This document shows positions 22,843-49,705 of a stretch of 64,000 nt of DNA, piece after piece. The stretch's first letter is position 1; every line of letters begins with the position of its first letter. The notes under the pieces are model-generated. The model was not told where the DNA came from. It saw only the letters and a program-made list of their open reading frames with translations, and did not search any database. The stretch comes from a virus. Its lineage: Duplodnaviria; Caudoviricetes. The DNA lies in IMG/VR virus record IMGVR_UViG_3300031994_000065, positions 1 through 64,000 of that record; one strand, given 5' to 3'. Made by a program: the position numbers and the translations under genes.

Positions 22843-22847
22843 TGATT

Positions 22848-22882
22848 AAAGAGAAGAATCTAAATCCAAGATTCTTCTCTTT
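22848..22882. terminator. Bidirectional terminator
   Basis: aaagagaagaatct / agattcttctcttt inverted repeat between convergent genes. Confidence 0.8.
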
Positions 22883-22892
22883 GACCCCGTTT

Positions 22893-24329: not shown

Positions 24330-24372
24330 TCAAATCTCCTCCTTTACAAAAAAGTTAGAGAGCATAAATTTT

Positions 24373-24442
24373 GGGAAAAAGAATCCGCACCGCATTTGTT
24401 GAATGCGGCGTCCGATACCGTAATACGGCGCGGACTCTTTTT
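24373..24442 (-). terminator. Three-way-junction 3' element/terminator (copy A)
   Basis: Outer stem AAGAGUCCGC/GCGGAUUCUU encloses two hairpins, then UUUUU; homologous to 33363-33426. Confidence 0.7.
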
Positions 24443-24446
24443 GGTT

Positions 24447-24875
24447 TTAAGCTTCGACGAGATTGATGTGGATCAATTTTTGCGAATTGTTGAAATCGTC
24501 AATCATTTTTTCAAAGCGGGTTTTAACAACCGGTTTTTCGACGAGTTCGAAATACCAGCGTTCGAAACCGTTGTCGATTGACGGGGTCGCATAAAACGCG
24601 TTGAGTTTCTCGATCGCTGTTTCCAGCGAATCAACGCGCATGTCAACGACCGGTCCCAAAGCCGCTTTGGACAGTGTTACCTGTCCTTTGCTTTTCCAGA
24701 GAGGGTTGACGCTGAAGTAACGCGCTTTTCTCGTGGCGAAGCAGGGGAACCAGTTGCCGTTGTCGTTTTCCGCAATGATTGCAACATCGAGTTGTTTGGC
24801 TTTGTTGTCGTGCAGGTCGACAAAACCATTCAACATTGCGAACGTTGCGATTGCGATTGCCGAAGTCTTTTCCAT
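24447..24875 (-). CDS. Early cassette cargo A, hypothetical protein
   Basis: ATG at 24875 spaced from AAGGAGG; flanked by a conserved leader and 3' element. Confidence 0.7.
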   Translation of the reverse strand: MEKTSAIAIATFAMLNGFVDLHDNKAKQLDVAIIAENDNGNWFPCFATRKARYFSVNPLWKSKGQVTLSKAALGPVVDMRVDSLETAIEKLNAFYATPSIDNGFERWYFELVEKPVVKTRFEKMIDDFNNSQKLIHINLVEA

Positions 24876-24879
24876 GATA

Positions 24880-24993
24880 AACATCCTCCTTAAAGATGTG
24901 GATCGTAGGTTTTCGTCAATTTAGTACAAGAGAACTCCTACTAAACTCTCATACACCACGATAATATATATTCATAGGTGGGGGCGATGTCAG
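24880..24993 (-). promoter_or_regulatory. Early promoter (CTGACA-N17-TATATATTAT) plus structured leader, copy A
   Basis: Near-identical to 33163-33275 and 34004-34117. Confidence 0.85.
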
Positions 24994-25042
24994 ATCGGAA
25001 AATTAGGTATATTGCTATAATACATGAAAAAGATAGATAACA

Positions 25043-25066
25043 AAGGAGGGAACTAAACCCCTCCTT
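25043..25066 (-). terminator. Terminator hairpin
   Basis: aaggaggg / ccctcctt inverted repeat at the end of the nuclease gene. Confidence 0.6.
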
Positions 25067-26195
25067 AAAATAATGATTTTTTCGAACGTGCAGAATATTG
25101 ATTCAGTTCGACGACATTAATTGGACTCATCTCGAAATATTTAGAATTCAGATTTTTCAATGCGTCATTCTCATACTTATCCACAAGCTGTTTCGTTATG
25201 TTGAGTTGTTGCGGTTCTGAGACCATGCCAAGTTGTCTGTCTAAATCGACGCACATGATACTGTTAGCAATTCGCTCTTTGTTATCATCATTAGGACCGT
25301 CTTTGATTGCCATTATAAGGTGTTCTAATCCAATTATTTCAGCTTCACTTATATCCAGCTCTTTGAACAATTTGTGTAATCTCTTGTATATGGTTTTCCA
25401 TCCACAACCTTTGATCTTTCCGATACCGCGACGTTTATCTCCAACTATGGCAAGAATGAAAGTAATCAGGTATGCAGGAAGTTTGTGTGAATTCTTTATA
25501 TCGTGTTTCTCTCTGATGATGGTAAAAAGATTCTCTTTGGTTACTATGTAACTTTCGTCACCTTTTGGATACATAACCAAGAAGTTCTTGTTGACGTATT
25601 GCAAATCGTATTCGTCTCTGGTTATCAAAATATTCAATTGACCATCGAGTGCTTTAGAGTTGCATAACAACAGAGGAACGAGAGAACTTTCGAGTCTATT
25701 TGATGTTACCAAATATACACCTTCCACATAACCCACTATGGTTCTGAGAGCTTTGATGACAGACTCCAGAACCATATTAGTTGCCTCGTAGTTTGGATTG
25801 TCGGTGTAATCGTAAATGAATCTCTCGCGATAGTGTTTAAGAAACATCGTATTATTCAGTGTCGTGTATTTATCGTATTCATTCATGAATAGAACGATAT
25901 TAGTCTTGATTCTGTTTTTGGTAAAGAATCGACGATAATGCCCGGCAAGATTCAGAATGTTACTGATAATGGAAAAATGAAAGTTCTTGGTTTCAGTTTT
26001 ATCCATAGAAAGAATGAATTCTTCTACGGTTTGGTTATGTATGCAATGAATAATTGATTCGAGATTGATGAATATATTTACTCGATCTATTACTTCTCTA
26101 ATACCAACAGAACCAAATAGAAGATTCATTTTTTCGAACTTAATCTTGTGAGCATTGAATATCTTATCAATCGTTTCAGATGAACTTGAAATCAT
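25065..26195 (-). CDS. RNase H / 5'-3' flap exonuclease (T4 RNase H-like)
   Basis: NIFINLESII N-terminal PIN-like motif, ITRDEYDLQY, and helix-3-turn-helix GDKRRGIGKIKGCGWKT. Confidence 0.7.
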   Translation of the reverse strand: MISSSSETIDKIFNAHKIKFEKMNLLFGSVGIREVIDRVNIFINLESIIHCIHNQTVEEFILSMDKTETKNFHFSIISNILNLAGHYRRFFTKNRIKTNIVLFMNEYDKYTTLNNTMFLKHYRERFIYDYTDNPNYEATNMVLESVIKALRTIVGYVEGVYLVTSNRLESSLVPLLLCNSKALDGQLNILITRDEYDLQYVNKNFLVMYPKGDESYIVTKENLFTIIREKHDIKNSHKLPAYLITFILAIVGDKRRGIGKIKGCGWKTIYKRLHKLFKELDISEAEIIGLEHLIMAIKDGPNDDNKERIANSIMCVDLDRQLGMVSEPQQLNITKQLVDKYENDALKNLNSKYFEMSPINVVELNQYSARSKKSLF

Positions 26196-26270
26196 TTCAA
26201 TCCCTTCTTCAGATAAAAAATATTGGGCGGGAAAGGTTCCCGCCCTTAACGTGTGTTTCCTTGTCAGATT

Positions 26271-27158
26271 TTATTTCGTCGTGATGTGTTCGATGATTTC
26301 GCGGATGTCACTGCCGCCATTGCCGAGTTCGCGCAAACGTGCGACTCGGTACATCACATTGCTGCCTTGCTGAGCTGTATCGAGCAGAATGACACGGTAA
26401 GCTCTGTTGTGCAAGAACAGCGCACTCAGAACGGCGTCCGGGTTGAGTTCGATATAGCAAAATGCTCTGCCGTTTTTGTCGCGTTTCTGAGACTCGTTCA
26501 CTACGAGTTTGCTCGTATCGACAAACGGTTTGACAAGCTCTTTCAATTTTGCATCCAAACGAACGTGTGCGCCACGCGCTTTGCCGCCGAGCAATTCGAG
26601 TTCGATGTCGTTAGCCGAGCGACCATTCACGACAAGATGTTCCATCTTCGGAAAGATGAGATACATCTTGGGAATGTCGTTCAGTACTGCAGCGCCATCC
26701 CCGAAATAGATGTAGCGGTAACCGTGATGCTCGAAGTATTTTTCGAAATACGTCGAAATGTCGCGACTCGTGAACGTGAAGATCGACCCACTGGGATCGA
26801 GTCCGAGACGATTGTCGTTCGCGCGGTTCCCAATGACACATCCGCCTTCGTAGTTATACAAACCATTCGGATCGCTCACGTCGGATTGTGGACGAGTGAA
26901 AGGTTTACCACCTCCGTCTTTCGGACGTTGCGGTTGCGGATTCGGCTGACGCTGTTCGCGCTGTTGTTGACGCGGTTGATGTACTTGCTGCTTGGGTTTC
27001 GGAGTAGGTTCAGGTTTAACCACCGGCTCTGCCTCCTCTTCTTTTTCGAATTCGTCGTTGTCTTCAAACGGATCGGGCAATTTGCTCGCTGCCGATTTGA
27101 CCGTGCTTTCTTCGCCGACTGCACGGTACAAGCGAATTTCCTCGCTGCTTACTTCCAT
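26271..27158 (-). CDS. Hypothetical early protein
   Basis: 295 aa, RBS AAGGAGG, early motif at 27203-27212, own terminator at 26226-26246; P/Q-rich linker. Confidence 0.7.
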   Translation of the reverse strand: MEVSSEEIRLYRAVGEESTVKSAASKLPDPFEDNDEFEKEEEAEPVVKPEPTPKPKQQVHQPRQQQREQRQPNPQPQRPKDGGGKPFTRPQSDVSDPNGLYNYEGGCVIGNRANDNRLGLDPSGSIFTFTSRDISTYFEKYFEHHGYRYIYFGDGAAVLNDIPKMYLIFPKMEHLVVNGRSANDIELELLGGKARGAHVRLDAKLKELVKPFVDTSKLVVNESQKRDKNGRAFCYIELNPDAVLSALFLHNRAYRVILLDTAQQGSNVMYRVARLRELGNGGSDIREIIEHITTK

Positions 27159-27202
27159 GAGTAATGCGCCTCCTTCTTTAATTTGTGGTCGTAACCGAGT
27201 TT

Positions 27203-27212
27203 ATAATATATA
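27203..27212 (-). promoter_or_regulatory. Early promoter motif TATATATTAT
   Basis: Exact motif ~45 nt upstream of the start codon. Confidence 0.65.
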
Positions 27213-27287
27213 CTTAGAAATCGCGTTAAAATACAGCCACTCCTATAGTTAGTTGTGACTGCATTTATAATAGATTAGCGATTCCTT

Positions 27288-28334
27288 TTATCTGTTGACT
27301 TTTGCAAAATTTCTTTCCATAAGTGACCTAACTTGCGGAGCCCAGTTATAGTTATCCGGGCAGTAGACGGGGTTGATCGAACTGACCGTATCTAAGCCGC
27401 GTGCAAAATAACACTCATTGATAAGTTGCCCGAATGCATCGATATTTTCTTTTTTCGAGCTGTAACTTAATCCCATCATTCCGAAAAGGTTATTATCATT
27501 CAACGCCATAAATGAAGTCCCATGACCGCTTTCGAGTTGTGCAACAGCCAAAGCAAATACGGCATTGACTCCGTATGTGGATTCCATTTCGTAGAACACA
27601 TGACCTAACCCTTCGAGACCGGTTCCGGCAACAATCGATTCCAGTTCATCCATACTCAATCCACATCGTTCGGTTATTACGTCTGAAAGCGGATAAACCG
27701 GTGGAATAAGGTTGACTCTGTAATGTTCGATTTTGCCACTGCTAAGAAACGGTTTGACGTGTTCATAGTAATACGAACTGGGATAGTAATCGACTTTAAC
27801 GAATCGTTTTTCAATATATGCTGCTTCGCCGATGCAATAGAAGTTGCTGTTGTAGATTAACGGAACAATCTCGTATGTATTGTACTTGTCTAATTGTATC
27901 GGTTTGTCGTCTTCAGCAGGCTGTTTGTAACATATCGCGTCGAGTTCGTTTCGAGTGAATAACACGCCGACGATTTTTTCTGTCGAAGGCTTCTCAAATT
28001 TGTCAAGTTCGCAGTACGCTCTGTATTCGCCAGCTACTCCCCATTGTGGATTAATGGGGCTGACCGAGATAGCAGTACCACTAGGAAGCGTGCCAATGAG
28101 TCGAGCCGAAGAATCGGGTTCGGCATACATCGGAACATCTTGTGTAGAGACGCAAACCAAGTCTGCAAATTTGTCTATTTCTACAAGGGGTTCCGCTTCC
28201 GCAACGTTTGTCTGAACAATCTGTTCATCTGTCGCCGGATTGACTCGAGGATTGAAGAAGTTGTGATTGATTCCGGCTCCAATCAGCATCGCACCAGTTA
28301 CACAGATCGCCGCGATTAGATGTTTAGTATACAT
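27288..28334 (-). CDS. Glucosaminidase-family (GH73) peptidoglycan hydrolase with N-terminal signal/anchor and SH3 domain
   Basis: GLGHVFYEMESTYGVNAVFALAVAQLESGHGTS...NNLFG catalytic motif; VPMYAEPDSSARLIGTLPSG is SH3-like; hydrophobic N-terminus. Confidence 0.85.
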   Translation of the reverse strand: MYTKHLIAAICVTGAMLIGAGINHNFFNPRVNPATDEQIVQTNVAEAEPLVEIDKFADLVCVSTQDVPMYAEPDSSARLIGTLPSGTAISVSPINPQWGVAGEYRAYCELDKFEKPSTEKIVGVLFTRNELDAICYKQPAEDDKPIQLDKYNTYEIVPLIYNSNFYCIGEAAYIEKRFVKVDYYPSSYYYEHVKPFLSSGKIEHYRVNLIPPVYPLSDVITERCGLSMDELESIVAGTGLEGLGHVFYEMESTYGVNAVFALAVAQLESGHGTSFMALNDNNLFGMMGLSYSSKKENIDAFGQLINECYFARGLDTVSSINPVYCPDNYNWAPQVRSLMERNFAKVNR

Positions 28335-28362
28335 TAGTGGATTCCTCCTTTGAGATTGAGTT

Positions 28363-28374
28363 TACCACTATGTC
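28363..28374 (-). promoter_or_regulatory. Late promoter RACA-N6-TA
   Basis: Minus strand GACA-tagtgg-TA. Confidence 0.7.
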
Positions 28375-28537
28375 CGCAGCTTTTAGGAAATAACCGTATC
28401 TTATTTTGCTTAAATCAAGCAATATTTGAGTTACACCAAACCAATTATTAAAATTTCATTAAAAATGTACTGGTCAAGATATATACATCGAATCATTGCG
28501 TGTATTCTGATGTGAATATCGGCTGATTTGGGCTGAA

Positions 28538-28549
28538 GACAAAGCGATA
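28538..28549 (+). promoter_or_regulatory. Late promoter RACA-N6-TA
   Basis: GACA-aagcga-TA. Confidence 0.7.
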
Positions 28550-28577
28550 ATACACTACACAGAAAGAAGGTGAAGAA

Positions 28578-29888
28578 ATGGGTCAATTATTACGAGGACA
28601 GATGTTCGGAACAGGTTTTGAGAAGCAAATTTATCATGATAATCATTCTGAGTTCGAGCAGAAAGTCCATAGCCAGTATGCGAAATATCTCAGTGAACTT
28701 CCAATATTCACTGAATACTTTCACATAGTTAAAGCATTAACTACGGAAGATACCGGTTTGTTAAACATTGATAAATTGACTGGAGACAGCTCACCGTTCA
28801 GATACAATCTCATTAAAGATTTTCCTCTGTTTGGTCTCGAGCAGATTCTTCTCGATATCGAAGATAATGATGATGTTGGTTTACAGACAAACTACGAGGG
28901 TGAGGCAATAATTCTTCCACAAACTATAACTCCGTTACCGGATGATGCATTTATTGCAACAGCTCTTGGAAAGAAATGGTTTTTCCGTGTAATCGAAATT
29001 CATTACGACACAATTCTTGCGAAGAACTATTACAAGATTAATTTTGTGGTAAAAGGTGTCGATAATGGTTATTATTACGAGGATTATCTTAAGAAGGTAA
29101 ACGACACATTCATTTGCGTTTACGACAATTATGGAACACAAGACGCATTTCTCATAAAGGAAGAGAATTATGATATTACTAATAAGCTCCAGAAAATGGC
29201 AGATGAATTATCAAGGAAATATCTCACTTTCTTCTATAATGAGAAATATAATGCGTTGATGGTTAAGAATCCACATGGTTACAATATGCTGTATGATGCT
29301 TATGTGAATTACTTCTGTAATGAGCAATCGATATTTGCTCAGAATCCAAGAAACTTTTGGAATTATAAGTTCTATGTAGAAACCAGACCGGAATTTGAGT
29401 TCTTCTATAACGCAAACTCAATTCAATCGGTTGTCATTAACAAAGATTTGGAATTGATTCAATCACCAAGATTTATGCGGTATTATGATACTATTCCCAC
29501 TTTCACCGATTCAATATTCCAGTTCTATGGAGATTTTGACACTTCCGGAATAACGATAAGTGAACGACATATAAATCCATTTGGTAGACAGATTCATCCG
29601 TTAATACCTCAAGATTTGTTTGAAGCAATCTGCTCTAATGGAAACGTTGATACCACAAATTTGATCTACAATGTCTTGGTGAAATACATCAATAATGATA
29701 TTGAAAGTGTAGGAAAACTTTTAGGTAATTTCAATGACAAAATTCGCGTTAGACCCACATACTTGGATTATGTCTTGATACCTCTATTCCTGTACATTCT
29801 TTATCAATACAAGAAGTCTGTTACCAAGACAAACAATAATTATGTTGAGAATGAACAGCTTCGACAAAAACTTAAAATCTCACACTGA
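28578..29888 (+). CDS. Virion structural protein, probably neck/head-closure
   Basis: SPFRYNLIKDFPLFG...EGEAIILPQTITPLPDDAF...FRVIEI is a beta-rich motif recalled from phiKZ-like virion proteins; late promoter. Confidence 0.5.
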   Translation: MGQLLRGQMFGTGFEKQIYHDNHSEFEQKVHSQYAKYLSELPIFTEYFHIVKALTTEDTGLLNIDKLTGDSSPFRYNLIKDFPLFGLEQILLDIEDNDDVGLQTNYEGEAIILPQTITPLPDDAFIATALGKKWFFRVIEIHYDTILAKNYYKINFVVKGVDNGYYYEDYLKKVNDTFICVYDNYGTQDAFLIKEENYDITNKLQKMADELSRKYLTFFYNEKYNALMVKNPHGYNMLYDAYVNYFCNEQSIFAQNPRNFWNYKFYVETRPEFEFFYNANSIQSVVINKDLELIQSPRFMRYYDTIPTFTDSIFQFYGDFDTSGITISERHINPFGRQIHPLIPQDLFEAICSNGNVDTTNLIYNVLVKYINNDIESVGKLLGNFNDKIRVRPTYLDYVLIPLFLYILYQYKKSVTKTNNNYVENEQLRQKLKISH

Positions 29889-29891
29889 AGA

Positions 29892-30233
29892 ATGGAGGAA
29901 TTTGAGATGCTTAAGACATTACGTTCACAATTGGCAACTAAAAAGGCAGATGCTTCGTTTGAAGGATTTGTCCTTGATGCTATTGAACGCGCACCTCAGA
30001 GAGATATCATGCTCGAAGAATGCGATGCTCCGGAATGTTGGCATGAAGACGACGATTACTGCGATGAAGATATTGGCAAGTTGATCGATGCTCTTCCCGA
30101 ATCCGACATCGATTTGGATAATGAAGCGATTATTCAAGGAATTATTCGTGGTCGCGACGAACAGGGTAACGAGAAAGATATGTCAGTGGAAGAATGTTGC
30201 GAGGCGTATATACCGCCCACTGAAGAAGTTTAA
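29892..30233 (+). CDS. Small acidic protein, probably virion
   Basis: 113 aa, co-transcribed; contains FEG and MLEE motifs like the head proteins. Confidence 0.55.
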   Translation: MEEFEMLKTLRSQLATKKADASFEGFVLDAIERAPQRDIMLEECDAPECWHEDDDYCDEDIGKLIDALPESDIDLDNEAIIQGIIRGRDEQGNEKDMSVEECCEAYIPPTEEV

Positions 30234-30239
30234 GAAAGG

Positions 30240-30758
30240 ATGAAACTAATGGAAACTGATATGACTACATTCGTAGACAAGAAACTTGTAAAAGTTACAG
30301 ATCGTGGTCCGATTATGCCGCTCGGTGGAATCTATGGACCCACTCTTCCTCAGATTATGACCGTTAAAACGATTGCGATTCTCTTGCAAAAGGGTTATCA
30401 CGTTACGGAAATTCTGAATAATAAGTCTGAAGTTAAACTCAGTCTTTCGAACTACAATGTCGACATCAATGGCGATGGTGGTGAAGGTCTTAAAAAGGTT
30501 AAGAAACCTGATGAAGATATTAAGCCTCTGCCGAAGAAAAATGCCAAAGTCGAAACTCCTGCGCCTGAAGCAAAAACTGAAAAACCTGCTGAAAAAGAAT
30601 CGGTTAAAGTTGAGACTGCCGTCGTTGAGAATAAGATTACCGTATCAGCGGCTGGAGGTAAGGCTGAAGCCGATTCTAAAAGGAATGGTAATGACGCTGG
30701 AGGTCTTATGAGTACCAAAAAAAATAAGCCTAAGGCGGACGAACTTACCTCTAAGTAA
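30240..30758 (+). CDS. Hypothetical protein with K/E/P-rich tail
   Basis: 172-aa ORF ending before a terminator. Confidence 0.6.
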   Translation: MKLMETDMTTFVDKKLVKVTDRGPIMPLGGIYGPTLPQIMTVKTIAILLQKGYHVTEILNNKSEVKLSLSNYNVDINGDGGEGLKKVKKPDEDIKPLPKKNAKVETPAPEAKTEKPAEKESVKVETAVVENKITVSAAGGKAEADSKRNGNDAGGLMSTKKNKPKADELTSK

Positions 30759-30777
30759 TTTGGGATTAAAACGAGAA

Positions 30778-30822
30778 AAAAAAACCGGGGAGCAATCTGA
30801 TAGAATTTGCTCCCCGGTTTAA
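30778..30822. terminator. Bidirectional terminator
   Basis: aaaccggggagcaa / ttgctccccggttt stem, with an A-run on the left. Confidence 0.85.
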
Positions 30823-30847
30823 CCGTTTTTTGAACTGCTGCTACTGA

Positions 30848-31027
30848 TTAGCGGCGAGTTCCACAAGTGCTATTGTCACCCATGGTCGTCACCTCCTTTC
30901 AGTAACAGGAGGGTGGTTTTACGTTTCATTTACCTCCCCCCACATTTATTAGATTTAAGTCGCAGCTACTAATTTCACTGCGTCTTATACCTATATAATA
31001 TATATTTTCGATTCTAAGATATGTCTA
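30848..31027 (-). other. Small early transcription unit carrying only two micro-ORFs (30876-30929, 17 aa; 30848-30883, 11 aa)
   Basis: TAGACA-N17-TATATATTAT at 31027-30995; RBS GGGGGAGG and AAAGGAGGTG; terminator at 30778-30822. Confidence 0.5.
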
Positions 31028-32414
31028 AATCGATTTCTCCAGTTCTACTGACAGAAATACCTTCAATTGTCGATTCCAAAACCGTTTTGGTTCTGTAGAA
31101 TGTGATTCTCCGTACAGGCATCTTCGGCAATTTTCTTTCTCTGGAACGTAAGAAAATGTCAGATATATGAATGAAGTAATTCTTGTGAACATCGTTATCA
31201 AACATTTTCACCATAGTTACGATTGACTTTTCTTCGTCTCGATACACATGAACCGGGATATATATCGTATCTTTCATCTTCACTGCTACTTTGAATGCAG
31301 TATCTCGCTCAATATCGTCATTGTCTCCACATATGTAATATCCGTCTATGATGCCTCTGCGGTCCATTTCCAATACATCGTGCGCAACACTGGTTCCCTC
31401 TTTAATTGGTGGGAATCCAAAATTTTCGACCATGTTTAACAGAGCCATATCACATATCTTATTGACGATGCGATAATTGCTTAAGAATTGATGGATTTCT
31501 TCATCGGAGAAATTTCGAAAGTTTGAAGGTCTGGCTAAGAAACCGAAATCATTCATATTACTGAGATTAATTCCATTAGTAGCCCAATCTCTTGGATTTA
31601 GAAGTTCATCTTTCATTCGCCAGTCATATTCGCTAGTGAGTGGCCATTGGTCATCATCCGGTTTACTTTGTCTAATAACAAAGTCAATATCGTCACACAT
31701 CTTAGTGATTATCGGAGCATCAATATGCTTCTTGATTTCACCAAATGCATTTATTAACATATCTTTGTTAGCAACTCGCCGAATCTTTTCTAACATATTG
31801 GCGTCGTACACCGATTTTGTATAGAAAAAATTTCTGGTTATGTCGTAGCAAAGTTTCAGGTCTGTGTCATAGACGTAATCCGAAATTCTTGTGGTGTTAA
31901 ATCGTCCGTTCAGAATATAATCTTTATCGAGATAATTCTGAGCGGATTTCTTAATAGCTTGGTTTATTGCGTCATTTAATCTGTCACTAAACTGACATGA
32001 ATGATGTTGATGCGCTGGATCTACCAGTTGATTCCTGAAGATATTAGACCATTTATCAAATGTGAGCACACCTTCAGCATAATCAGTCGCGTTCATTATG
32101 ACGTGTTTTTCTTCCATTGTGATGGTTGGGGCTTCTAAGTAATCTATAGAAGACGATTCTGCTGCGATAATATCTTTATCTGCGTATGGTTTAAATGCCG
32201 AATATTTCTTCAGTTTGACTTTCATGTTGTATTGTTTGGCGAGTCTGTTTATATTCGCAGCTAATTGCTTACGCTTTTTTGGTGGGCATGTATGGAAGTA
32301 CGCAATCGCACTACGGACGTGATTTTCGTCGGGCATTGGAAAAGCTCTATCTTCCGGAAGACCGAACTGATCTGCGGGGAGTTCTTTTCTTTGAGCACTA
32401 GAAAGTTTAGGCAT
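31014..32414 (-). CDS. DUF6582-like N-terminal domain protein, putative virion protein
   Basis: MPKLSSAQRKELPADQFGLPEDRAFPMPDENHVRSAIAYF is a recognisable small phage domain; late promoter upstream. Confidence 0.6.
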   Translation of the reverse strand: MPKLSSAQRKELPADQFGLPEDRAFPMPDENHVRSAIAYFHTCPPKKRKQLAANINRLAKQYNMKVKLKKYSAFKPYADKDIIAAESSSIDYLEAPTITMEEKHVIMNATDYAEGVLTFDKWSNIFRNQLVDPAHQHHSCQFSDRLNDAINQAIKKSAQNYLDKDYILNGRFNTTRISDYVYDTDLKLCYDITRNFFYTKSVYDANMLEKIRRVANKDMLINAFGEIKKHIDAPIITKMCDDIDFVIRQSKPDDDQWPLTSEYDWRMKDELLNPRDWATNGINLSNMNDFGFLARPSNFRNFSDEEIHQFLSNYRIVNKICDMALLNMVENFGFPPIKEGTSVAHDVLEMDRRGIIDGYYICGDNDDIERDTAFKVAVKMKDTIYIPVHVYRDEEKSIVTMVKMFDNDVHKNYFIHISDIFLRSRERKLPKMPVRRITFYRTKTVLESTIEGISVSRTGEIDLDIS

Positions 32415-32431
32415 CGTTTATCACCTCTTTT

Positions 32432-32443
32432 TAGTGCTTTGTC
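32432..32443 (-). promoter_or_regulatory. Late promoter RACA-N6-TA
   Basis: Minus strand GACA-aagcac-TA. Confidence 0.7.
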
Positions 32444-32510
32444 GCGAGGGGTAAAAATAGGTGAAATTCGGAGAAAAAAAAACCACGCGGTTTTGCGTGG
32501 CTGAATTGTT

Positions 32511-33158
32511 TCAATATGCGAAAGTCATAGGAATACCCATGTCTTTCAACATGTTGAAACAGCTGATGAAACCTTCTCTTGGTTTGAGATACTCAAACCG
32601 AAAGAAGACTTTCCAATTTTCGCCGTAGCGTTTCTTGTAAACTTTTTCCGCTTCTCCGGATTCGAAATTCGTGACGTAGTTTTCGTACGCCTTTTTCGAA
32701 ATCCAGAACCCCACGATTTTTTGCGGAGCGACAAACGCCTCGGTGTAGGCGCTGTATTCGTCGTCGAGTTTTTCATAGTCGTCAACGATGAACTCCTCAC
32801 GAATTGATGGGTAACGCTTCCCATCAATCGTGTAGCTCCCGCAATCAACGGAGGCCATTAACGACGTTTCGCCTTTCACATAAACGCCTATTACGCCGAG
32901 TCCTCCGTTCATGAGCCTAGATTCAGGCCCGGGTTTCGAGCAACTTATCTCGGCTCCGGTGCCAAGAATGGTCAACAGTTTTTCGAGTGCGACCGCAGGC
33001 GACTGCGATCTGTTGACAGCGTTGAGGCCGTGCGCCCAGACCACTCCGTCAGTTCCTCTCGGAACATGACGTGATTTGAGCGCCTTAGCGTTTTCGAACG
33101 CCTTTCTCTCCTCGTCGTTCAAATCATCTGATTTCACACCATTGACGTAAATGCTCAT
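32511..33158 (-). CDS. Early cassette cargo B, hypothetical protein
   Basis: ATG at 33158 spaced from AAGGAGG; terminator at ~32474-32502. Confidence 0.7.
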   Translation of the reverse strand: MSIYVNGVKSDDLNDEERKAFENAKALKSRHVPRGTDGVVWAHGLNAVNRSQSPAVALEKLLTILGTGAEISCSKPGPESRLMNGGLGVIGVYVKGETSLMASVDCGSYTIDGKRYPSIREEFIVDDYEKLDDEYSAYTEAFVAPQKIVGFWISKKAYENYVTNFESGEAEKVYKKRYGENWKVFFRFEYLKPREGFISCFNMLKDMGIPMTFAY

Positions 33159-33162
33159 TTCA

Positions 33163-33275
33163 AACATCCTCCTTAAAGATGTGGATCGTAGGTTTTCGCA
33201 ATTTAGTACAAGAGAACTCCTACTAAACTCCTATACACCACGATAATATATACTTATGGGAGAGGGTAATGTCGG
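33163..33275 (-). promoter_or_regulatory. Early promoter (CCGACA-N17-TATATATTAT) plus structured leader, copy B
   Basis: Leader differs from copies A and C by a few bases. Confidence 0.85.
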
Positions 33276-33292
33276 AACGTAAAAAGGAGAAA

Positions 33293-33330
33293 AAGCCAGA
33301 ACCTATTAAGGTTCTGGCTTTGTCACGCTT
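33293..33330 (-). repeat. Terminator-like hairpin duplicated at 34338-34374
   Basis: aagccagaacc-N6/N5-ggttctggctttgtcacgctt occurs at both sites. Confidence 0.85.
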
Positions 33331-33362
33331 CTTGTTGTGGGAGGTAAAAAATATCTCCTTGA

Positions 33363-33426
33363 GGGAAAAAGAATCTGTGCCGCAAATGTGTGCGGTGTCT
33401 GTGCCGATTTACGACACAGATTCTTT
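33363..33426 (-). terminator. Three-way-junction 3' element/terminator (copy C)
   Basis: Homolog of 24373-24442 with compensatory CGC/GCG to UGU/ACA changes. Confidence 0.7.
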
Positions 33427-33432
33427 CGTGAA

Positions 33433-33999
33433 TCATTTCCAGCCTTTTGCGCAGATAACCTTCGGAATATATTTCCAATACTGCACCGATTGCGCGCAGG
33501 TGTAAAGACGTATTGTCTTGTCAGCCCAACACACAAGCTTTCCATTGTTATATGGAAGTAGTATTGTTTCATATAAACTGATAGTGTTTTTGTCGCGTTT
33601 GAAACTGCGCCCGTTGAAATGGAAGTCTTGATGGCTACCATTACAACAAGAGATGAGTGTGTACTCTCCCTTGTCGAATTTGTTCGCCATCGAGAAATGA
33701 TTTTCTTTCTTGCCTTCGATAATGAATTCTGCGAATCCTCCGTGAACGCAAGCAACCAGCCCCTGATCTGTTACTAACGGGACTGCTTCCATCTGGACGG
33801 CGAACCTTTTCAAGAATGACCATATGGTCAATTTCTTTCCAGTATCCGCGTATCTCACATCGGTGTACAACGACGCAGTTCCGTTTTTGACTTTGAAGTA
33901 CGCGATAACGTACATCGCGCCGAACAGAATTGCCCCTCCTGTGAGACCCCAAATGACGTTAATAACGGAGACGATCGAATTTACCAGAGCGTTTTTCAT
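33433..33999 (-). CDS. Early cassette cargo C, membrane-anchored hypothetical protein
   Basis: N-terminal TM segment (VINVIWGLTGGAILFGAMYVIAYF); ATG at 33999. Confidence 0.7.
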   Translation of the reverse strand: MKNALVNSIVSVINVIWGLTGGAILFGAMYVIAYFKVKNGTASLYTDVRYADTGKKLTIWSFLKRFAVQMEAVPLVTDQGLVACVHGGFAEFIIEGKKENHFSMANKFDKGEYTLISCCNGSHQDFHFNGRSFKRDKNTISLYETILLPYNNGKLVCWADKTIRLYTCAQSVQYWKYIPKVICAKGWK

Positions 34000-34003
34000 T
34001 TCA

Positions 34004-34117
34004 AACATCCTCCTTAAAGATGTGGATCGTAGGTTTTCGTCAATTTAGTACAAGAGAACTCCTACTAAACTCTCATACACCACGATAATATATACTTAGG
34101 AGGGTGGGCGATGTCAG
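34004..34117 (-). promoter_or_regulatory. Early promoter (CTGACA-N17-TATATATTAT) plus structured leader, copy C
   Basis: Leader is identical to copy A. Confidence 0.85.
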
Positions 34118-34138
34118 ATTGAAAAATTATATCGTGTC

Positions 34139-34150
34139 AACATATCATTA
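34139..34150 (+). promoter_or_regulatory. Late promoter with no downstream CDS
   Basis: AACA-tatcat-TA pointing into the structured region. Confidence 0.6.
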
Positions 34151-34328
34151 GATGCATCTATAATACTAATGTGCGGGCAATAGCTCCACTTTAAGGGAAG
34201 ATAGGTTATTGGTGACAAACGCCTAAGTTGTACTCGGCTTATATAGTAGACTTCGGATTAACCCGCCTCGAAGTCGCCGCGTAACAGAATTGGCGGCTAG
34301 GCCTATCTTCCTGGGAGTCGTTTTTTTT
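34150..34328 (+). ncRNA. Candidate ~180-nt multi-branched non-coding RNA, family unknown
   Basis: GGAAGAUAGG (34196-34205) pairs perfectly with CCUAUCUUCC (34302-34311) and closes four hairpins; U8 at 34321-34328; G-U pairs favour the + strand; no ORF. Confidence 0.65.
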
Positions 34329-34385
34329 GCGGACAATAAGCCAGAACCTTGTAGGTTCTGGCTTTGTCACGCTTTTTGTAGTTTG

Positions 34386-36671
34386 TCAGATTGAAATCAT
34401 CGGTACGGTTTTGTGATGCCACGATTCGTGTTCTTTGCGTTTGCAGTGTGGGCATTCGTTTTTTATAATACCGGTATAACCACAGACCGGGTCGCGGTCG
34501 ACAGGGTGGTTCACACTGAAATATCCCATATTTGCATCGTGCATGGCTCGTACAAGTTTTTCAAAAGCTTCTACATTTTGGAGAGGATCCCCATTGTACT
34601 CAATATAGCTTATCGCGCCAGCATCACATTTTTCATGGTATGGTGCTTCGATACGAATTTTATCGATAGCTCGTATCTTATAATACACAGGAACATGGAA
34701 ACTGTTCGTGATGTACAATCTATCGGTGACACCACGTATGATTCCATAATCTTTGCGATTCGCTTTTTGAAATGTATTTGCTGTCCCTTCGGCTGGAGTT
34801 GAAAAGGTTGACCAATTCATTTTTTCTTCAACTTTAAACTTGTCGGTTTTGTCACGAAGATGTTGGACGATTTCCAATCCGAACCGTTGCGAATCCTCAT
34901 TCTCTCCATGATGTTTTCCTGTTAATGCTATTAAAGTTTCTGCAAGACCACAGAATCCAATAGAAAGGGTAGCATTTTTCAAAACTTTTCGTATAGTATC
35001 ATTTGGCGATAATTCATCGCTTCCCATCCAAACGCCTTGACCCATCAAAAACGGAAAATTGAAAACGTGTTTATCTGCAATAATTTGAAAACGGTAAAGA
35101 AGATAATCGTGACTAAGTTGAATATAGTGATCGTATATCTCGTAGAAACGTTTTATGATCTCTTCTTGTGGTGCGTTGTTTCCAAGTTGACGTTTTGCTT
35201 CGAGTGCAAATTTTGGAAGATTAAGAGTCACAAAACTAAAATTTCCTCTTCCACCAGTTTCTTCAGGTCCATTCACATTTCCGATAACACGGGTACGGCA
35301 TCCCATCGTTGCAGCGTATGTATTATAATTTCCTGGTTTATAATACTTCAAGTTAAAAGTGGCATCACACGATACAAAGTTCGGGTACAACCTCTTAGCA
35401 CTCACTTCACATGCACGCTTAAATAAGTCGTAATTTGGATCGCCTGGGTTGAAATTGATTCCTGATTTAATCTGAAAAATCGAAATTGGAAATAGTGGAG
35501 ATTCTCCCTTTCCCATTCCAGCATCAATAGCGTTGAGAGTTTCTCTTATTGCCAATCGTCCCTCTGGAGAAGTATCCATACCAAAGTTGATAGAACTGAA
35601 CGGAACTTGCCCGCCTGACCTAGCGTGTAAGCTATTAAAATTATACACCATTGCTTCCATAGCTTGACGTGTCTCTTCTTCAGTGGCATCTTTTGCTATT
35701 TCATAAATTGAATGAAGACCATCCCATTCGTTTCGCTCGACTTCCATGAAAACTTTACAGAAAACTCTCCATATTTCTTCTATGGTTTCCCAATAATCAC
35801 TAGAATTCTTAATGTCTTTATCTTCGACGTAATGTATCTTTGTTCTATCGAATTCTTCTTTGACTTCTTTACTAACCGTGTGCTTGTCGTACATGTTCGA
35901 TGTCACAAATTGTCCAAATTCAACCGTTTTAGATATAATTTCTTTCACGAATGTTTTTCTGATCCCTTCAGCCATCGCATAATCTTCTGCATTTAGTGAC
36001 TGGCCTCCGAAACAGTCGTTCTGGTCTGATTGAATTGCCACACATGCTAAAGCTGCATATGATCGAATAGAGCCTGGTTCTCTTATATGACCATGACCTG
36101 TTGAAAACCCACCGTGAAACAGTTTCAGTAGATCAATTTGACAACAATTCAACGTTATCATTGAGAAATCGTTATCGTGTTCATGAATGAAATGTTGACG
36201 ATGTGCTTCAGCAAATTCTTTTGGTTGGGTATTAAGCGCGAATTCTTTTGCTCCATCTGATCCAAGTTTAAGCATTATGCCCATTGGACCATCAGTGTTA
36301 ATATTTGCATTTTCCCTCTTATCGTCCATCGCTGAGGCATCAGTAAACAAAATGTCTTTATAAGTTTGCATGAGATTCTTCTTCGATTCCCGACGAAGCA
36401 TATGTTTATATCTGTAACAAATATACTTCTTGGCTATCTCGAAAAATCCGTGTTGCATAAGACGACGTTCCACGACATCTTGAATATCTTCGACTGATAT
36501 TTCAGTACGATCACCAATATCGGACTCTATCTGTTCAATGATATTCTCAAGATCGCGTTCGGTCATTTGTTCGACGGAAGCGTTGTTAGCTCCAACAATC
36601 GCTTTGTAAATTTTCGATCGGTCGTATGAAACCAACGAACCGTCGCGTTTGATAACGCGTTCAAGATTCAT
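34386..36671 (-). CDS. nrdD: Anaerobic (class III) ribonucleoside-triphosphate reductase with ATP cone, lacking the C-terminal glycyl-radical segment
   Basis: VIKRDG ATP cone, TLNCCQID, ARSGGQVPFSSINFG, MGCRTR, GNFSFVTLNL, STPAEG, C-terminal CxxC pair; no RITGY-type motif. Confidence 0.93.
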   Translation of the reverse strand: MNLERVIKRDGSLVSYDRSKIYKAIVGANNASVEQMTERDLENIIEQIESDIGDRTEISVEDIQDVVERRLMQHGFFEIAKKYICYRYKHMLRRESKKNLMQTYKDILFTDASAMDDKRENANINTDGPMGIMLKLGSDGAKEFALNTQPKEFAEAHRQHFIHEHDNDFSMITLNCCQIDLLKLFHGGFSTGHGHIREPGSIRSYAALACVAIQSDQNDCFGGQSLNAEDYAMAEGIRKTFVKEIISKTVEFGQFVTSNMYDKHTVSKEVKEEFDRTKIHYVEDKDIKNSSDYWETIEEIWRVFCKVFMEVERNEWDGLHSIYEIAKDATEEETRQAMEAMVYNFNSLHARSGGQVPFSSINFGMDTSPEGRLAIRETLNAIDAGMGKGESPLFPISIFQIKSGINFNPGDPNYDLFKRACEVSAKRLYPNFVSCDATFNLKYYKPGNYNTYAATMGCRTRVIGNVNGPEETGGRGNFSFVTLNLPKFALEAKRQLGNNAPQEEIIKRFYEIYDHYIQLSHDYLLYRFQIIADKHVFNFPFLMGQGVWMGSDELSPNDTIRKVLKNATLSIGFCGLAETLIALTGKHHGENEDSQRFGLEIVQHLRDKTDKFKVEEKMNWSTFSTPAEGTANTFQKANRKDYGIIRGVTDRLYITNSFHVPVYYKIRAIDKIRIEAPYHEKCDAGAISYIEYNGDPLQNVEAFEKLVRAMHDANMGYFSVNHPVDRDPVCGYTGIIKNECPHCKRKEHESWHHKTVPMISI

Positions 36672-36743
36672 AAGCGTTACCTCCTTTGAATTAGTTTAAG
36701 GGTAAGTTGAGGAAGAGATTCGAATCTCTTCCTCATTTTGAGT

Positions 36744-37346
36744 TTATTTGTAATTCTTTCTGAATTCTGGGAGATACCAAAGAGCTTTTCCTCTGAGAAC
36801 GTCTCCACCGCGAGAACCGTCTATTGCATGAGGATTAAACTTTGGGGATTCTGAAGTTTCAAGATATTCCAAATCCCAGCGTTCACAAGTTGATTTCGGT
36901 CCATATTGTTCATGACACCACAAACCATCTTCATTATCTGCAGCTTCTCCATGTGTCATTACATGACCTGGATTGATTGTGAGCCATAATCCTTCAGCTA
37001 CTGCACAAACAGCCAAAGCCATACTTTCAATCTGTGCAGCGGTTGGAGGATTCGGACCTAAGTCTTTGGTATCCGCATATACCGCACAACATATTGTGAT
37101 GTTGATAGCTCCACTGTTACGTTTGTATGTTCCGGCGATAACATCAGCAAAATTATCTGTACTGGCATAATATTTGCCATTCTTATCGATATTGATATGG
37201 TAGTCGTCAGACTTATTATCGTACCAACCAGCAGTCCAGTGGAGATAAATCTTTGGTTCTCTACCAAGTGCTTTTGCTTTATCCCAAACTTCTTCTCGGG
37301 CAGCAGAAGCGAGTTGATAGATTTCTTTAAGTGTAACTTCACGCAT
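36744..37346 (-). CDS. N-acetylmuramoyl-L-alanine amidase (Amidase_2 type), candidate endolysin
   Basis: IYLHWTAG...DYHINID...VMTHGEAA Zn-binding motifs; late promoter at 37364-37375. Confidence 0.85.
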   Translation of the reverse strand: MREVTLKEIYQLASAAREEVWDKAKALGREPKIYLHWTAGWYDNKSDDYHINIDKNGKYYASTDNFADVIAGTYKRNSGAINITICCAVYADTKDLGPNPPTAAQIESMALAVCAVAEGLWLTINPGHVMTHGEAADNEDGLWCHEQYGPKSTCERWDLEYLETSESPKFNPHAIDGSRGGDVLRGKALWYLPEFRKNYK

Positions 37347-37363
37347 TTTCGTTCACCTACCTT

Positions 37364-37375
37364 TATGAGATTGTC
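37364..37375 (-). promoter_or_regulatory. Late promoter RACA-N6-TA
   Basis: Minus strand GACA-atctca-TA. Confidence 0.7.
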
Positions 37376-37441
37376 TTGAATATTAAGAGGTTAGAAATGA
37401 AAAAAAAATCTCGCCCATATGAGCGAGACCGCAGCGGAGCG

Positions 37442-37930
37442 TTATTGCTCCAAGAGTTCATTGAGATAAACGACATCTTCAAACGAAAGATTGTTTTCCT
37501 TGATTATGGCGCGAGCCCAGTTGATGTAGCCGCCGAAGCAATACTGATCGTCAAAATAGTAGCGAATACCGTTGATGTCGACATACTCGCATTCTATTTC
37601 ATCATCGAGCGTTTTGAACCATTGGCTTCCGACACTGATGCGGTTGGCGCGTTCGATCCGGGTAGGATTCGTTGCTCCATTGCAAATTATTTCGGCCGCC
37701 TGTTTCGGTGTTACGATGTCAACATCAAAGATGCCAACCTCGTGCCAATCATCGCTCACAACAGCATACTTTTTGTAATATGCCGTGCTGATGTAGTAAT
37801 GCGGATGACTATGGCACTCATGGAAGTTCGGGCACCGGGATCCGATGCACTCACCATCGAAATCCTCTGGTTCAGTGCATTGAAAGTTGAGTATTTGACC
37901 CAGCTCGTATCCGAAATCGTCTGTGGTCAT
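37442..37930 (-). CDS. Early cassette cargo D, acidic Cys/His-rich hypothetical protein
   Basis: RBS AAGGAGGG; terminator at 37399-37428; N-terminal Cys/His cluster. Confidence 0.7.
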   Translation of the reverse strand: MTTDDFGYELGQILNFQCTEPEDFDGECIGSRCPNFHECHSHPHYYISTAYYKKYAVVSDDWHEVGIFDVDIVTPKQAAEIICNGATNPTRIERANRISVGSQWFKTLDDEIECEYVDINGIRYYFDDQYCFGGYINWARAIIKENNLSFEDVVYLNELLEQ

Positions 37931-37932
37931 TC

Positions 37933-38039
37933 CAAATCCCTCCTTAAGGGATCGTAGGTTTTTTCATCTTAGTAGTGAGCTGCCTACTTAACTCTTCTAC
38001 GCGTATATAATATATAAATGTGGGTGGGGGTGATGTCGG
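37933..38039 (-). promoter_or_regulatory. Early promoter (CCGACA-N17-TATATATTAT) plus type-2 structured leader, copy D
   Basis: Identical to copy E from ggatcgtagg to the promoter. Confidence 0.85.
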
Positions 38040-38040
38040 A

Positions 38041-38245
38041 TTGAAATTAAACCCTTCTTAAAAAAGGTAATTCGATTCCGATGATGAATCATATAAGGAG
38101 GCAAACATCATGAAATTTGGTGGTATTACACTTGGTGGTCGGAACATTATCGTACCAACCAGCAGTCCAGTGGAGATAAATCTTTGGTTCTCTACTAAAT
38201 GCTTTTGCTTTACCCCATACTTCTTCTCGGGTATTGCGAGGTTGG
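38041..38245 (+). pseudogene. Chimeric duplication relic: 5' end of the 38978 gene fused to an amidase-gene fragment
   Basis: 38041-38151 matches 38906-39031 and 38146-38231 matches 37215-37300; joined at ATTATC microhomology. Confidence 0.85.
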
Positions 38246-38304
38246 AAAACAAAAAAAAATCACGCCCGTATAATGAGCGTGACCGGTGAGCGTGACGTGA
38301 CCAG

Positions 38305-38790
38305 TTAGAAGAACCATCCCATTTTGCGGGCGGTTTCGCGGAAACGTTCCCAATTTTCGTCGCGGATCGTTGATACCGCTTTGTCTTTGACGCTTTCTAC
38401 AATCGCATCGTAGACATCGCAGTCCCACTTATCGGGCAACTTGATCTCATCGTCCCAATCCCAGTTCTCAATAAATGTGATCTGGTTGCGGCGGATGATG
38501 TCATCATGGCCTGATTCCGGCGGAAAGATCTCGTAGTACTCATCGTACATTTCGTCGAGCTTCGACGAGCTGTAATAGTCGAGATGATACGTCGAAACGA
38601 ACGCCTTCACGTCCATCTCATCTGAGATGAGCGCTTGGAAATCATCGAGATAATCCGAATGGACCGTCTCGAAAAACTCCCAGTTTTTCGCATAACGTTG
38701 ATCGTATGGGAGCACTTTCTTGACCATCTTGTCCTTGAGAGAGTCAAGAAGCGCCCTTTCTCTCACGTCGAGGTCGCTGTACTTAATCAC
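38305..38790 (-). CDS. Early cassette cargo E, acidic hypothetical protein
   Basis: GTG start after TAAGGAG; D/E/W/Y-rich 161 aa; terminator at 38251-38283. Confidence 0.7.
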   Translation of the reverse strand: MIKYSDLDVRERALLDSLKDKMVKKVLPYDQRYAKNWEFFETVHSDYLDDFQALISDEMDVKAFVSTYHLDYYSSSKLDEMYDEYYEIFPPESGHDDIIRRNQITFIENWDWDDEIKLPDKWDCDVYDAIVESVKDKAVSTIRDENWERFRETARKMGWFF

Positions 38791-38794
38791 TCTA

Positions 38795-38904
38795 CCATCT
38801 CCTTACGAGGCGAGGATCGTAGGTTTTTTCATCTTAGTAGTGAGCTGCCTACTTAACTCTTCTACGCGTATATAATATATAAATGTGGGTGGGGGTGATG
38901 TCGG
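38795..38904 (-). promoter_or_regulatory. Early promoter plus type-2 structured leader, copy E
   Basis: Identical core to copy D. Confidence 0.85.
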
Positions 38905-38924
38905 ATTGAAATTAAACCTCTCTT

Positions 38925-38936
38925 AACAAGAAGGTA
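38925..38936 (+). promoter_or_regulatory. Late promoter RACA-N6-TA
   Basis: AACA-agaagg-TA; degraded in the duplicated copy near 38059. Confidence 0.7.
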
Positions 38937-38977
38937 ATCCGATTCTAATGATGAATCATATAAGGAGGCAAAACATC

Positions 38978-39541
38978 ATGAAATTTGGTGGTATCACCCT
39001 TGGTGGGAAACTTGGTGGTTGGAACATTATCAACCAACCTGCAACTTCACTTCCTCAGGCTCTCGCCTCGGCAAAGCCCATTTTGTTTGGGTCGACATTT
39101 ACCCCGATTTGGCTCGTTGCGGATCAGATTGTGAATGGTACTAACTATTTGCTGGTCGCAGAGGCAGTTAGTACTACCTTGAAGACAATCAAAAGAATCG
39201 TCGGTATTATCGTTAACATTCCGGCTGGTTCGTTTGATGGTGAAGGCGCGAAAGTCGTCGAGGTTATCGAAGATGACGAGCTTGTCGAAGGAACCGATCC
39301 CGAAGATAAAGTCAAGGAATACTTCGACTCGATTATCGAACCTGCAGGCGAAAAACTCACTGGCGTCGGTATTACACCCGTTCTTTACATGGGCAAGAAA
39401 GTTACCAAAGGCGTCAATCACGTTGTCGTTGCTCAACGCCGCATGATTTCTTCAGACGCGGATCCGGAAGCTCTCATCATTGAGTTCAATGTCTTCAATG
39501 GAAAAGCAACTCTCTACTCAATGGAAAAAATTGGTGTGTGA
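38978..39541 (+). CDS. Hypothetical protein with two internal repeats (Firmicutes-type GGW family)
   Basis: FGSTFTPIWLVADQIVNGTNYLLV and TGVGITPVLYMGKKVTKGVNHVVV; RBS taaggagg. Confidence 0.65.
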   Translation: MKFGGITLGGKLGGWNIINQPATSLPQALASAKPILFGSTFTPIWLVADQIVNGTNYLLVAEAVSTTLKTIKRIVGIIVNIPAGSFDGEGAKVVEVIEDDELVEGTDPEDKVKEYFDSIIEPAGEKLTGVGITPVLYMGKKVTKGVNHVVVAQRRMISSDADPEALIIEFNVFNGKATLYSMEKIGV

Positions 39542-39612
39542 CTAAAATAGTTCTAACGAACGAAAACGAACAAATAACCCCGAGATGGATTCAATTCCAT
39601 TCTCGGGGTTCG

Positions 39613-40401: not shown

Positions 40402-40426
40402 ATGAATTCACCTCCAATGTTTGTTT

Positions 40427-40438
40427 TAGCATTCTGTC
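40427..40438 (-). promoter_or_regulatory. Late promoter RACA-N6-TA
   Basis: Minus strand GACA-gaatgc-TA. Confidence 0.7.
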
Positions 40439-40510
40439 GCTTTGATAAATAACTGACGCTACTAAAAACTAAATTCTTCACCAGTATTTAAAAGAAAGTA
40501 GAGGTGATGA

Positions 40511-40924: not shown

Positions 40925-40937
40925 GGAGGAAGAGTAA

Positions 40938-48734: not shown

Positions 48735-48769
48735 GCTCTCACTTCCCCTTCTTTAATAGATTCGGATGG

Positions 48770-48779
48770 ATAATATATA
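48770..48779 (-). promoter_or_regulatory. Early promoter motif TATATATTAT
   Basis: Exact motif upstream of the sigma-like gene. Confidence 0.65.
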
Positions 48780-48786
48780 CCCGAAT

Positions 48787-49602: not shown

Positions 49603-49705
49603 ATTGCGTCTCTCCTTTCAGAAAAAAGCGCGAGAAGAACCTAATGCAGGATCCCTCTCCAATACATTAGGTTCATGTAATTGATGTGATTATTCAGTAT
49701 CGCAG

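Follow-up and report, generated by a model that had tools for sequence, protein, structure and literature searches.

Promoter-leader units with unrelated orphan genes, probably shuffled by recombination, in an AR9-related jumbo phage of the sheep gut

The stretch of DNA described here comprises positions 1 to 64,000 of the IMG/VR virus record IMGVR_UViG_3300031994_000065 (the window). It contains five units, A to E, all on the minus strand, each of them formed by a common promoter-leader element of ~120 nucleotides (nt), an unrelated small open reading frame (ORF), here called the cargo, and a hairpin-plus-T-run terminator. These are probably monocistronic early units of a rumen jumbo phage related to phage AR9, with modules shuffled by ordinary recombination, similarly to the promoter-early stem-loop (PeSL) cassettes of T4-type phages. 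Coordinates of all features are given in Table 1.

The window lies within an 81-kb contig (G0), and two sister contigs, G001 (G1) and G002 (G2), carry further parts of this phage or of a nearly identical one. Taken together, the three contigs represent about 187 kb. The units were compared with those of related phages R1 (L134-L137), R2 (L138), R3 (L139-L143), R4 (L144) and R5 (L147/L148), plus contig L149. Phages R1-R4 were reached via amidase homologs at 79-91% identity, and R5 and L149 via homologs of cargo B. The amidase homologs P0006 and P0008 (about 70%) were dropped as relatives, as they sit in unrelated temperate phages.

A repeat search located the type 1 promoter-leader at 24848-25005, 33130-33287 and 33972-34129, and type 2 at 37949-38064 and 38814-38929, the D and E copies being 97% identical over 116 nt. 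The positions of TATATATTAT were set by regular expression and alignment. Repeat search, regular expression and alignment confirmed the five minus-strand units with a common promoter-leader. The count of five copies given by the original prediction holds for the window only: at least nine leader-bearing copies exist overall, A-E here and F, G, H and I in G2 (sister contigs G001/G002). All nine stand before orphan ORFs of 79-215 amino acids (aa). Identity among the promoter-leader copies is 86-100%, most of them lie in direct orientation, and the element of unit C equals that of unit A exactly from the -10 element to 5 nt short of the ATG. The box AAAACCTACGATCC is exact in 5/5 copies, with a chance expectation of 0.62 even at two mismatches. 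For A, B and C, the first ATG that had been listed lies within the leader; the likely start is the second ATG, 9 nt past the Shine-Dalgarno (SD) sequence AAGGAGG.

No Pfam or PHROG family was found for the cargo proteins, and Smith-Waterman z values were ≤3.4 for all pairs except F against c83 of R1. The cargo ORFs are thus unrelated, as had been proposed, with no shared family and no pairwise similarity among A-E. In the ESM Atlas, B gave a confident model belonging to no family, and A gave only weak SMC/MukB-like leads, below the level of trust. Cargo A is kept in the same slot in R1 (79%) and R2 (64%). B has homologs (71-38%) in further contigs of rumen phages, where they occupy the slot ahead of a 466-aa gene, and E has a 56% homolog in R3, directly ahead of the amidase. 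Cargo F, of 79 aa and located where G0 and G2 meet, is homologous to c83 of R1 (37% identity, E 1e-20). The sole homolog of D among 1.8 billion representatives was P0131 (43%). The context of P0131 is otherwise unrelated; upstream of it is a same-family leader that shares the SD hairpin, and downstream come a terminator and a further promoter of the leader type. In that distant phage (L152 2190-2258), another C-rich box and TATATATTAT are present within ~40 nt after the cassette terminator, and therefore tandem cassette arrays exist outside this lineage.

In the direction of transcription, R1 and R2 have the divergent gene w38948, a leader, X1, X2 and the 466-aa gene, and farther on a 380-aa gene, a leader, c83 (c61 in R2), the amidase, NrdD, a non-coding stretch, a leader, an A-like gene and a 478-aa gene. 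The order in the window is w38948 (divergent), leader E, leader D, amidase, NrdD, the non-coding stretch, leader C, leader B and the 466-aa gene, followed farther on by a 376-aa gene, leader A and the 478-aa gene. Thus, the two lineages have the amidase-NrdD block flanked by different copies of the leader, and each change of neighbour falls within a leader.

The contents of the slots also differ. The slot ahead of the amidase holds five unrelated families in five phages: D and E here, the E homolog in R3, c83 in R1, c61 in R2 and c144 in R4. Ahead of the 466-aa gene, R1 and R2 have X1 and X2, and both R5 and this phage have B. Phages R1 and R5 show 91-92% nucleotide identity as far as the start codon and, beginning 34-40 nt past the stop codon, in the downstream flank; the part between has nothing alike, homology fading just past CCTATGTTCC and resuming at the terminator T-run. 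These limits indicate that the exchanged module is composed of the SD hairpin, the ORF or ORFs and the terminator hairpin. Contigs G0 and G1 also part exactly at the T-run of the F terminator. Additionally, F precedes an 873-aa gene here, and c83 precedes the amidase in R1. The gene ahead of c83 on contig L136 is a 93% homolog of the 391-aa gene found ahead of F in this phage. From 50 nt upstream of the promoter on, L134 matches L136 at 99.9% identity, and it has the 380-aa gene in that place instead. The slots in relatives thus hold differing, unrelated ORFs, as predicted, both ahead of the amidase and between R1 and R5, with breakpoints at the leader end and the terminator T-run. Metatranscriptome contigs, X3 and X4, cover late genes such as the amidase and not the five cassettes, and in a diverged DNA relative, X5, the flanks were covered better than the cargos; these data were not used as evidence, because absence cannot be deduced from contig cover.

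All units are closed by a GC hairpin and a T-run, and at least three terminator families are shared across unrelated cargos. Family T1 follows A, C, the A homolog of R1 and X2, the last one seen in R1/R2; T2, a related two-hairpin type, follows F and c83; and T3 follows D, E and the E homolog of R3. The homologous 3' structures noticed earlier in A and C and the related terminators of D and E correspond to T1 and T3, respectively. The terminator type of B stays with B, since the same type follows the B-like gene of R5, with compensatory changes. The terminator of the preceding unit lies 25-60 nt upstream of the promoter, outside the conserved repeat. A further hairpin terminator, AAAGCCAGAACC..GGTTCTGGCTTT with AAGCGTGACA ahead of it, was observed at 33309-33338 after unit C and at 34353-34382 after nrdD, and in a weaker form near 39600 (39599-39628).

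In the D/E tandem, two dead copies of flanking genes (Table 1) lie behind unit E and are joined at an ATTATC microhomology, with 15/19 bases alike in the patch, and they are followed by the D promoter-leader, D, the D terminator and the real amidase. The simplest history is that two slot alleles were fused. An unequal, microhomology-mediated exchange would have taken place between two co-circulating phages, both with the order w38948-slot-amidase, one with E and the other with D. As this junction lies in the flanking genes, exchange between leaders is not the sole route.

The early promoter consensus of AR9 is AAATATATATTAT-N6-G(+1), and it is read by the injected virion RNA polymerase (RNAP) (PMC5312081). 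The motif TATATATTAT-N6-G was found exact in all five units. Its counts were 9 in G0, 10 in G1 and 13 in G2, against 0 for a reversed-pattern control, and 27 non-redundant sites were left after removing the G1/G2 overlap; the AR9 genome has 26 perfect early promoters. The sites are each located 30-110 nt ahead of an SD and a start codon, and one of them, directly before the gp226 homolog, is orthologous to an annotated AR9 early promoter. The 5' AAA of the AR9 consensus is not kept and reads GAA, AAG or TTT. On sequence grounds, the promoter of the units is an AR9-type early promoter of the virion RNAP and not a sigma-70 -35/-10 pair; homology to AR9 suggests that it would be used by the virion RNAP, early in infection. 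The interpretation of YGACA-N17 as a -35 element was therefore not maintained: the AR9-type decamer explains the promoter, and YGACA is part of a GACAT-plus-C-rich box present only at leader-bearing promoters of this phage and its relatives. Reading TGACA-N17-TATATA as a sigma-A promoter was also rejected, as it would make a poor one and the other 18 early promoters lack the GACAT box.

Other promoter-like sites were observed. On the plus strand, TATATAATAT-N6-G at 38004-38020 and 38869-38885 deviates from the early consensus by a single mismatch. These sites overlap promoters D and E and are directed towards w38948 (38948-39541) and the dead copy of that gene; with promoters D and E, they may form a divergent early promoter pair. 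A TATATATTAT decamer at 30994-31003 on the minus strand, just past the 466-aa gene and antisense into plus-strand genes, is followed by N6-A and not N6-G, and would probably be inactive with a polymerase as strict as that of AR9. An AR9-type late promoter, GACA-N6-TA, is found at 37364-37375 on the minus strand, between the D terminator and the amidase start, and is kept in R3 and R4. The amidase metatranscriptome contigs end at 37352/37353, one of them with an adapter attached.

Only 9/27 early promoters carry the C-rich box and the ~75-nt leader. Among the type 1 copies (A, B, C and two sister-contig copies), identity was 100% over the promoter and N6, 95% over the leader, 72% over the C-rich box at -30..-1 and 48%, equal to background, over the coding region. 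This peak in the transcribed part points to selection on the transcribed part. An alignment of 16 leaders from this phage and relatives R1-R3 was used to study the folding. The stem beginning at +1 pairs GUAUGAGAG with CUCUUGUAC in type 1 and GUAG..GAG with CUC.CUAC in type 2. RNAalifold picks the pairing GUAGG:CCUAC, which is formed in 16/16 leaders with both sides changed at two pairs, and, because GUAGG sits in the loop of the +1 stem, a pseudoknot results. For both helices together, counted over the 16 leaders of 5 phages, 89% of the cells were paired and five pairs were changed on both sides. The covariation score was 0.238, compared with 0.151 for shuffles (0/500 reached 0.238) and ≤0.139 for slid controls. 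The leader is thus a structured RNA with both helices covarying across relatives. All copies also have a short hairpin around the SD, which varies in sequence (ACAUC/GAUGU, CCGU/ACGG, CCCU/AGGG or UCCU/AGGA). The UUUAGUA/UACUAAA hairpin, preferred by minimum free energy in type 1, had no independent covariation support and is kept only as a possible alternative conformer. No meaningful Rfam match was obtained for 22000-41000 or for the relatives, and the leader matches no Rfam family. Stems at the extreme 5' end are a known type of mRNA stabiliser in Bacillus. Most likely, the leader stabilises the mRNA and/or controls translation of this promoter subclass.

From these data the following mechanism is proposed. 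The injected virion RNAP would read each unit from TATATATTAT-N6-G(+1). The promoter subclass of the units, 9 of about 27, adds the C-rich upstream box and a structured 5' untranslated region (UTR) of ~75 nt, formed by the stem beginning at +1, the GUAGG loop pairing with CCUAC as a pseudoknot and the small SD hairpin. Each unit further contains a small, fast-turnover orphan gene with its own intrinsic terminator. The similar leader copies and shared terminator families would act as portable homology, on which general recombination, plus occasional microhomology joins, may replace, add or move the SD hairpin, ORF and terminator, and may also shift larger leader-bounded blocks. No dedicated recombinase would be needed. 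Homologous recombination is the inferred route of exchange.

Some observations weigh against this interpretation. The swapping of ORFs was borne out for the slots ahead of the amidase and the 466-aa gene and failed for slot A, the exception, which holds the same gene in this phage, R1 and R2, that is, in all relatives seen; therefore, not every unit turns over. The D/E junction is at a microhomology in flanking genes, outside the leader. All relatives are metagenome contigs, and the contrast between L134 and L136 could be real or an assembly join at the repeat. No recombination intermediate, such as a circle or split joint, was found among the contigs examined. The promoter class and the presumed early timing are drawn from homology to AR9, the proposal does not account for the C-rich box, and the conservation of the leader could be wholly regulatory, with recombination as a by-product.

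This last possibility can be extended to a plain regulon, in which promoter and leader would simply mark co-regulated early genes and generic indels or fast divergence would make the relatives differ, with the repeats uninvolved. Covariation shows that the leader is selected as RNA, and the conservation of slot A and the D/E junction outside the leader also fit. A plain regulon is nevertheless considered unlikely, as the breakpoints recur at the leader end and the terminator T-run in independent comparisons, a leader-bounded block was transposed, and flank identity of 91-97% falling to none at the ORF cannot be the product of in-place divergence. The differing orders and contents might instead be chimeric contigs joined at the repeated leader, in line with Logan k=31 contigs of the source run, which break at each leader copy, and with L134 and L136, 99.9% identical downstream of the leader and different upstream. 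Such an artefact has very little probability: the longest exact shared stretch, ~93 nt, is below the k of 127-141 used for the long contigs, and several assemblies, made from different samples, have the R1 arrangement. A second contig, of 81,960 nt, encodes the same D and B proteins, the cargo replacements have unique sequence on both sides, and the D/E junction has unique remnants.

The units had been described as integron-like and as a candidate undescribed system. A dedicated capture system, by integron-like site-specific recombination or an RNA-mediated route with the leader or 3' structure as recognition site, would agree with the very sharp module borders and the invariant 10-14-nt box at the 5' border, and roughly one quarter to one third of the genome lies outside the contigs. 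The search for a recombinase or reverse transcriptase agreed with the earlier observation that no integrase was in view: no tyrosine integrase (PF00589), serine recombinase/resolvase (PF00239) or reverse transcriptase (PF00078) was found in G0, G1 and G2 (~187 kb, the genome being incomplete). Additionally, the 3' ends are intrinsic terminators from at least three unrelated families, each cassette comes with a promoter of its own, and one of the junctions is a simple microhomology join. A dedicated system is thus highly improbable, and the term integron-like was abandoned. There is a slim chance that the promoter-leader is itself an active gene-capture site, either because a phage enzyme encoded in the unseen genome recognises the invariant CCTACGATCC border or because transcription by the virion RNAP promotes template switching. 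If so, jumbo phages of this group would have a dedicated means of loading new early genes into ready-made expression slots. Recombination on portable leader and terminator homology remains the preferred explanation.

With respect to its affiliation, the phage is, judging from its genes, a distant relative of the Bacillus jumbo phage AR9. The source samples were from sheep gut. CheckV completeness was 22-32% per contig, and the 32% of the 81-kb contig corresponds to a phage genome of about 250 kb. The 3' end of G0 (G000:C1 81121-81294) overlaps G1 27408-27581, and, since G2 begins at G1 27455, G0 and G2 overlap by 127 nt (G002 1-127). Identical (100%) over exactly 127 nt, this overlap is what a break in a k=127 assembly typically leaves, and G0 and G2 are probably contiguous, giving about 160 kb of one genome; G1 links the junction point to another arm of 27 kb. 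Matches to the 525-aa protein at 47157-48734 are confined to Bacillus jumbo phages of the AR9 group, and its AR9 counterpart is g226, a subunit of the non-virion RNAP. The surroundings are syntenic with AR9 g228-g225 (a GroEL-like gene, a hypothetical gene, the early promoter, the gp226-like non-virion RNAP subunit and a DNA primase), and this order is kept although protein identity is only about 23%. Homologs of split RNAP beta and beta' are present in G0, G1 and G2 by Pfam matches. A megablast search of isolate phages with 33000-39100 gave zero matches, and back-translated amidase patterns yielded no locus in IMG/VR. The leader pattern retrieved only the two sister contigs from IMG/VR and JGI metagenomes, the other ~80 loci being promoterless chance matches.

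The nrdD gene is intact here (761 aa) and split into 2-3 ORFs in 4/4 relatives (Table 1). In R3 the gaps carry two HNH endonuclease ORFs and look like introns or inteins; no Rfam intron family was found in the gaps at threshold. The ORF-free structured stretch at 34139-34328 is kept after nrdD in R1, R2 and R3, travels with the amidase-nrdD block and always ends at a leader-type promoter.

Table 1. Coordinates of the units and other features (window positions unless a contig or accession is named). TSS, transcription start site.
Feature	Positions	Strand	Characteristics
Unit A terminator	24373-24440	-	branched intrinsic, family T1
Cargo A	24447-24875	-	142 aa, orphan
Unit A promoter-leader	24876-24995	-	C-rich box; TATATATTAT 24961-24970; predicted TSS G 24954; 5'UTR to SD
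Unit B terminator	32474-32500	-	
Cargo B	32511-33158	-	215 aa, orphan
Unit B promoter-leader	33159-33277	-	TATATATTAT 33243-33252; predicted TSS G 33236
Second hairpin terminator after unit C	about 33290-33322		
Unit C terminator	33363-33427	-	branched, family T1
Cargo C	33433-33999	-	188 aa, hydrophobic N-terminus, orphan
Unit C promoter-leader	34000-34119	-	TATATATTAT 34085-34094; predicted TSS G 34078
Amidase-NrdD block	34386-37346	-	amidase 36744-37346; NrdD 34386-36671
Unit D terminator	37400-37428	-	family T3
Cargo D	37442-37930	-	162 aa, Cys/His-rich
Unit D promoter-leader, type 2	37931-38041	-	TATATATTAT 38007-38016; predicted TSS G 38000
Dead copy, 5'UTR and first codons of w38948 (38948-39541)	38061-38151	+	
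Dead amidase 5' copy, behind unit E	38146-38231	-	95% identical to the real gene, 94% to R3 amidase
Unit E terminator	38251-38281	-	family T3
Cargo E	38305-38790	-	161 aa, GTG start
Unit E promoter-leader, type 2	38791-38906	-	TATATATTAT 38872-38881; predicted TSS G 38865
AR9-syntenic block	47157-51475		AR9 KU878088.1 193034-197275 (L107)
Split nrdD in relatives	L134 10690-13253; L138 10690-13254; L139 1355-5775; L144 1980-4675		

If the interpretation is correct, promoter/terminator-mediated modular shuffling, known from T4-type phages, extends to AR9-like jumbo phages with their own polymerases, with portable homology that is largely a structured leader RNA. The rapidly exchanged early orphan genes would be candidates for host takeover or anti-defence functions. 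The leader constitutes a new cis-acting RNA motif with covariation support and no Rfam family, and promoter, leader and terminator together would form a compact, portable expression module for a little-studied group of rumen phages.

Among known systems, integron cassettes resemble these units in having standard slots with unrelated small genes that differ between relatives. They differ in that here there is no IntI-type integrase and no attC, and each cassette has its own promoter and terminator instead of one common Pc. The early promoters of AR9 (Lavysh et al. 2017, PMC5312081) share the decamer, the 6-nt spacing, the G start, the promoter number (26 perfect in AR9, about 27 here) and one orthologous position before the gp226 homolog. 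In contrast, similarity among AR9 early promoters ends a few bases past the start site, without long shared leaders or a C-rich box. In the AR9 early promoter regions no shared leader and nothing common beyond the promoter was detected, and a motif of unknown function is mentioned for AR9 early 5'UTRs (PMC5312081). The closest parallel is that of the PeSL cassettes of T4-type phages (Arbiol et al. 2010, PMC2839356; Comeau et al. 2014, PMC4122927), and the proposal of an undescribed system was given up for these reasons: the promoter is known from AR9, and the outcome matches PeSL shuffling. No report of such shuffling in jumbo phages was found in the literature searched. Both systems have repeated intergenic early-promoter motifs, mostly ahead of orphan genes, with terminators adjoining the motifs, and in both nrdD is among the flanked genes (PMC2839356). 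In both, indels and replacements between close relatives break at the motifs, as seen here for R1 against R5, the slot ahead of the amidase, the block transposition and G0 against G1. Exchange between neighbouring motifs that yields mini-circles is a further feature of PeSL cassettes, and no joint of that kind was present in the contigs examined here. On the other hand, PeSL units have a sigma-70-like promoter for the host RNAP, with the stem-loop inside the promoter, whereas the units of this AR9-like jumbo phage of sheep gut have an AR9-type virion RNAP decamer and are dominated by a 75-nt structured, covarying 5'UTR.

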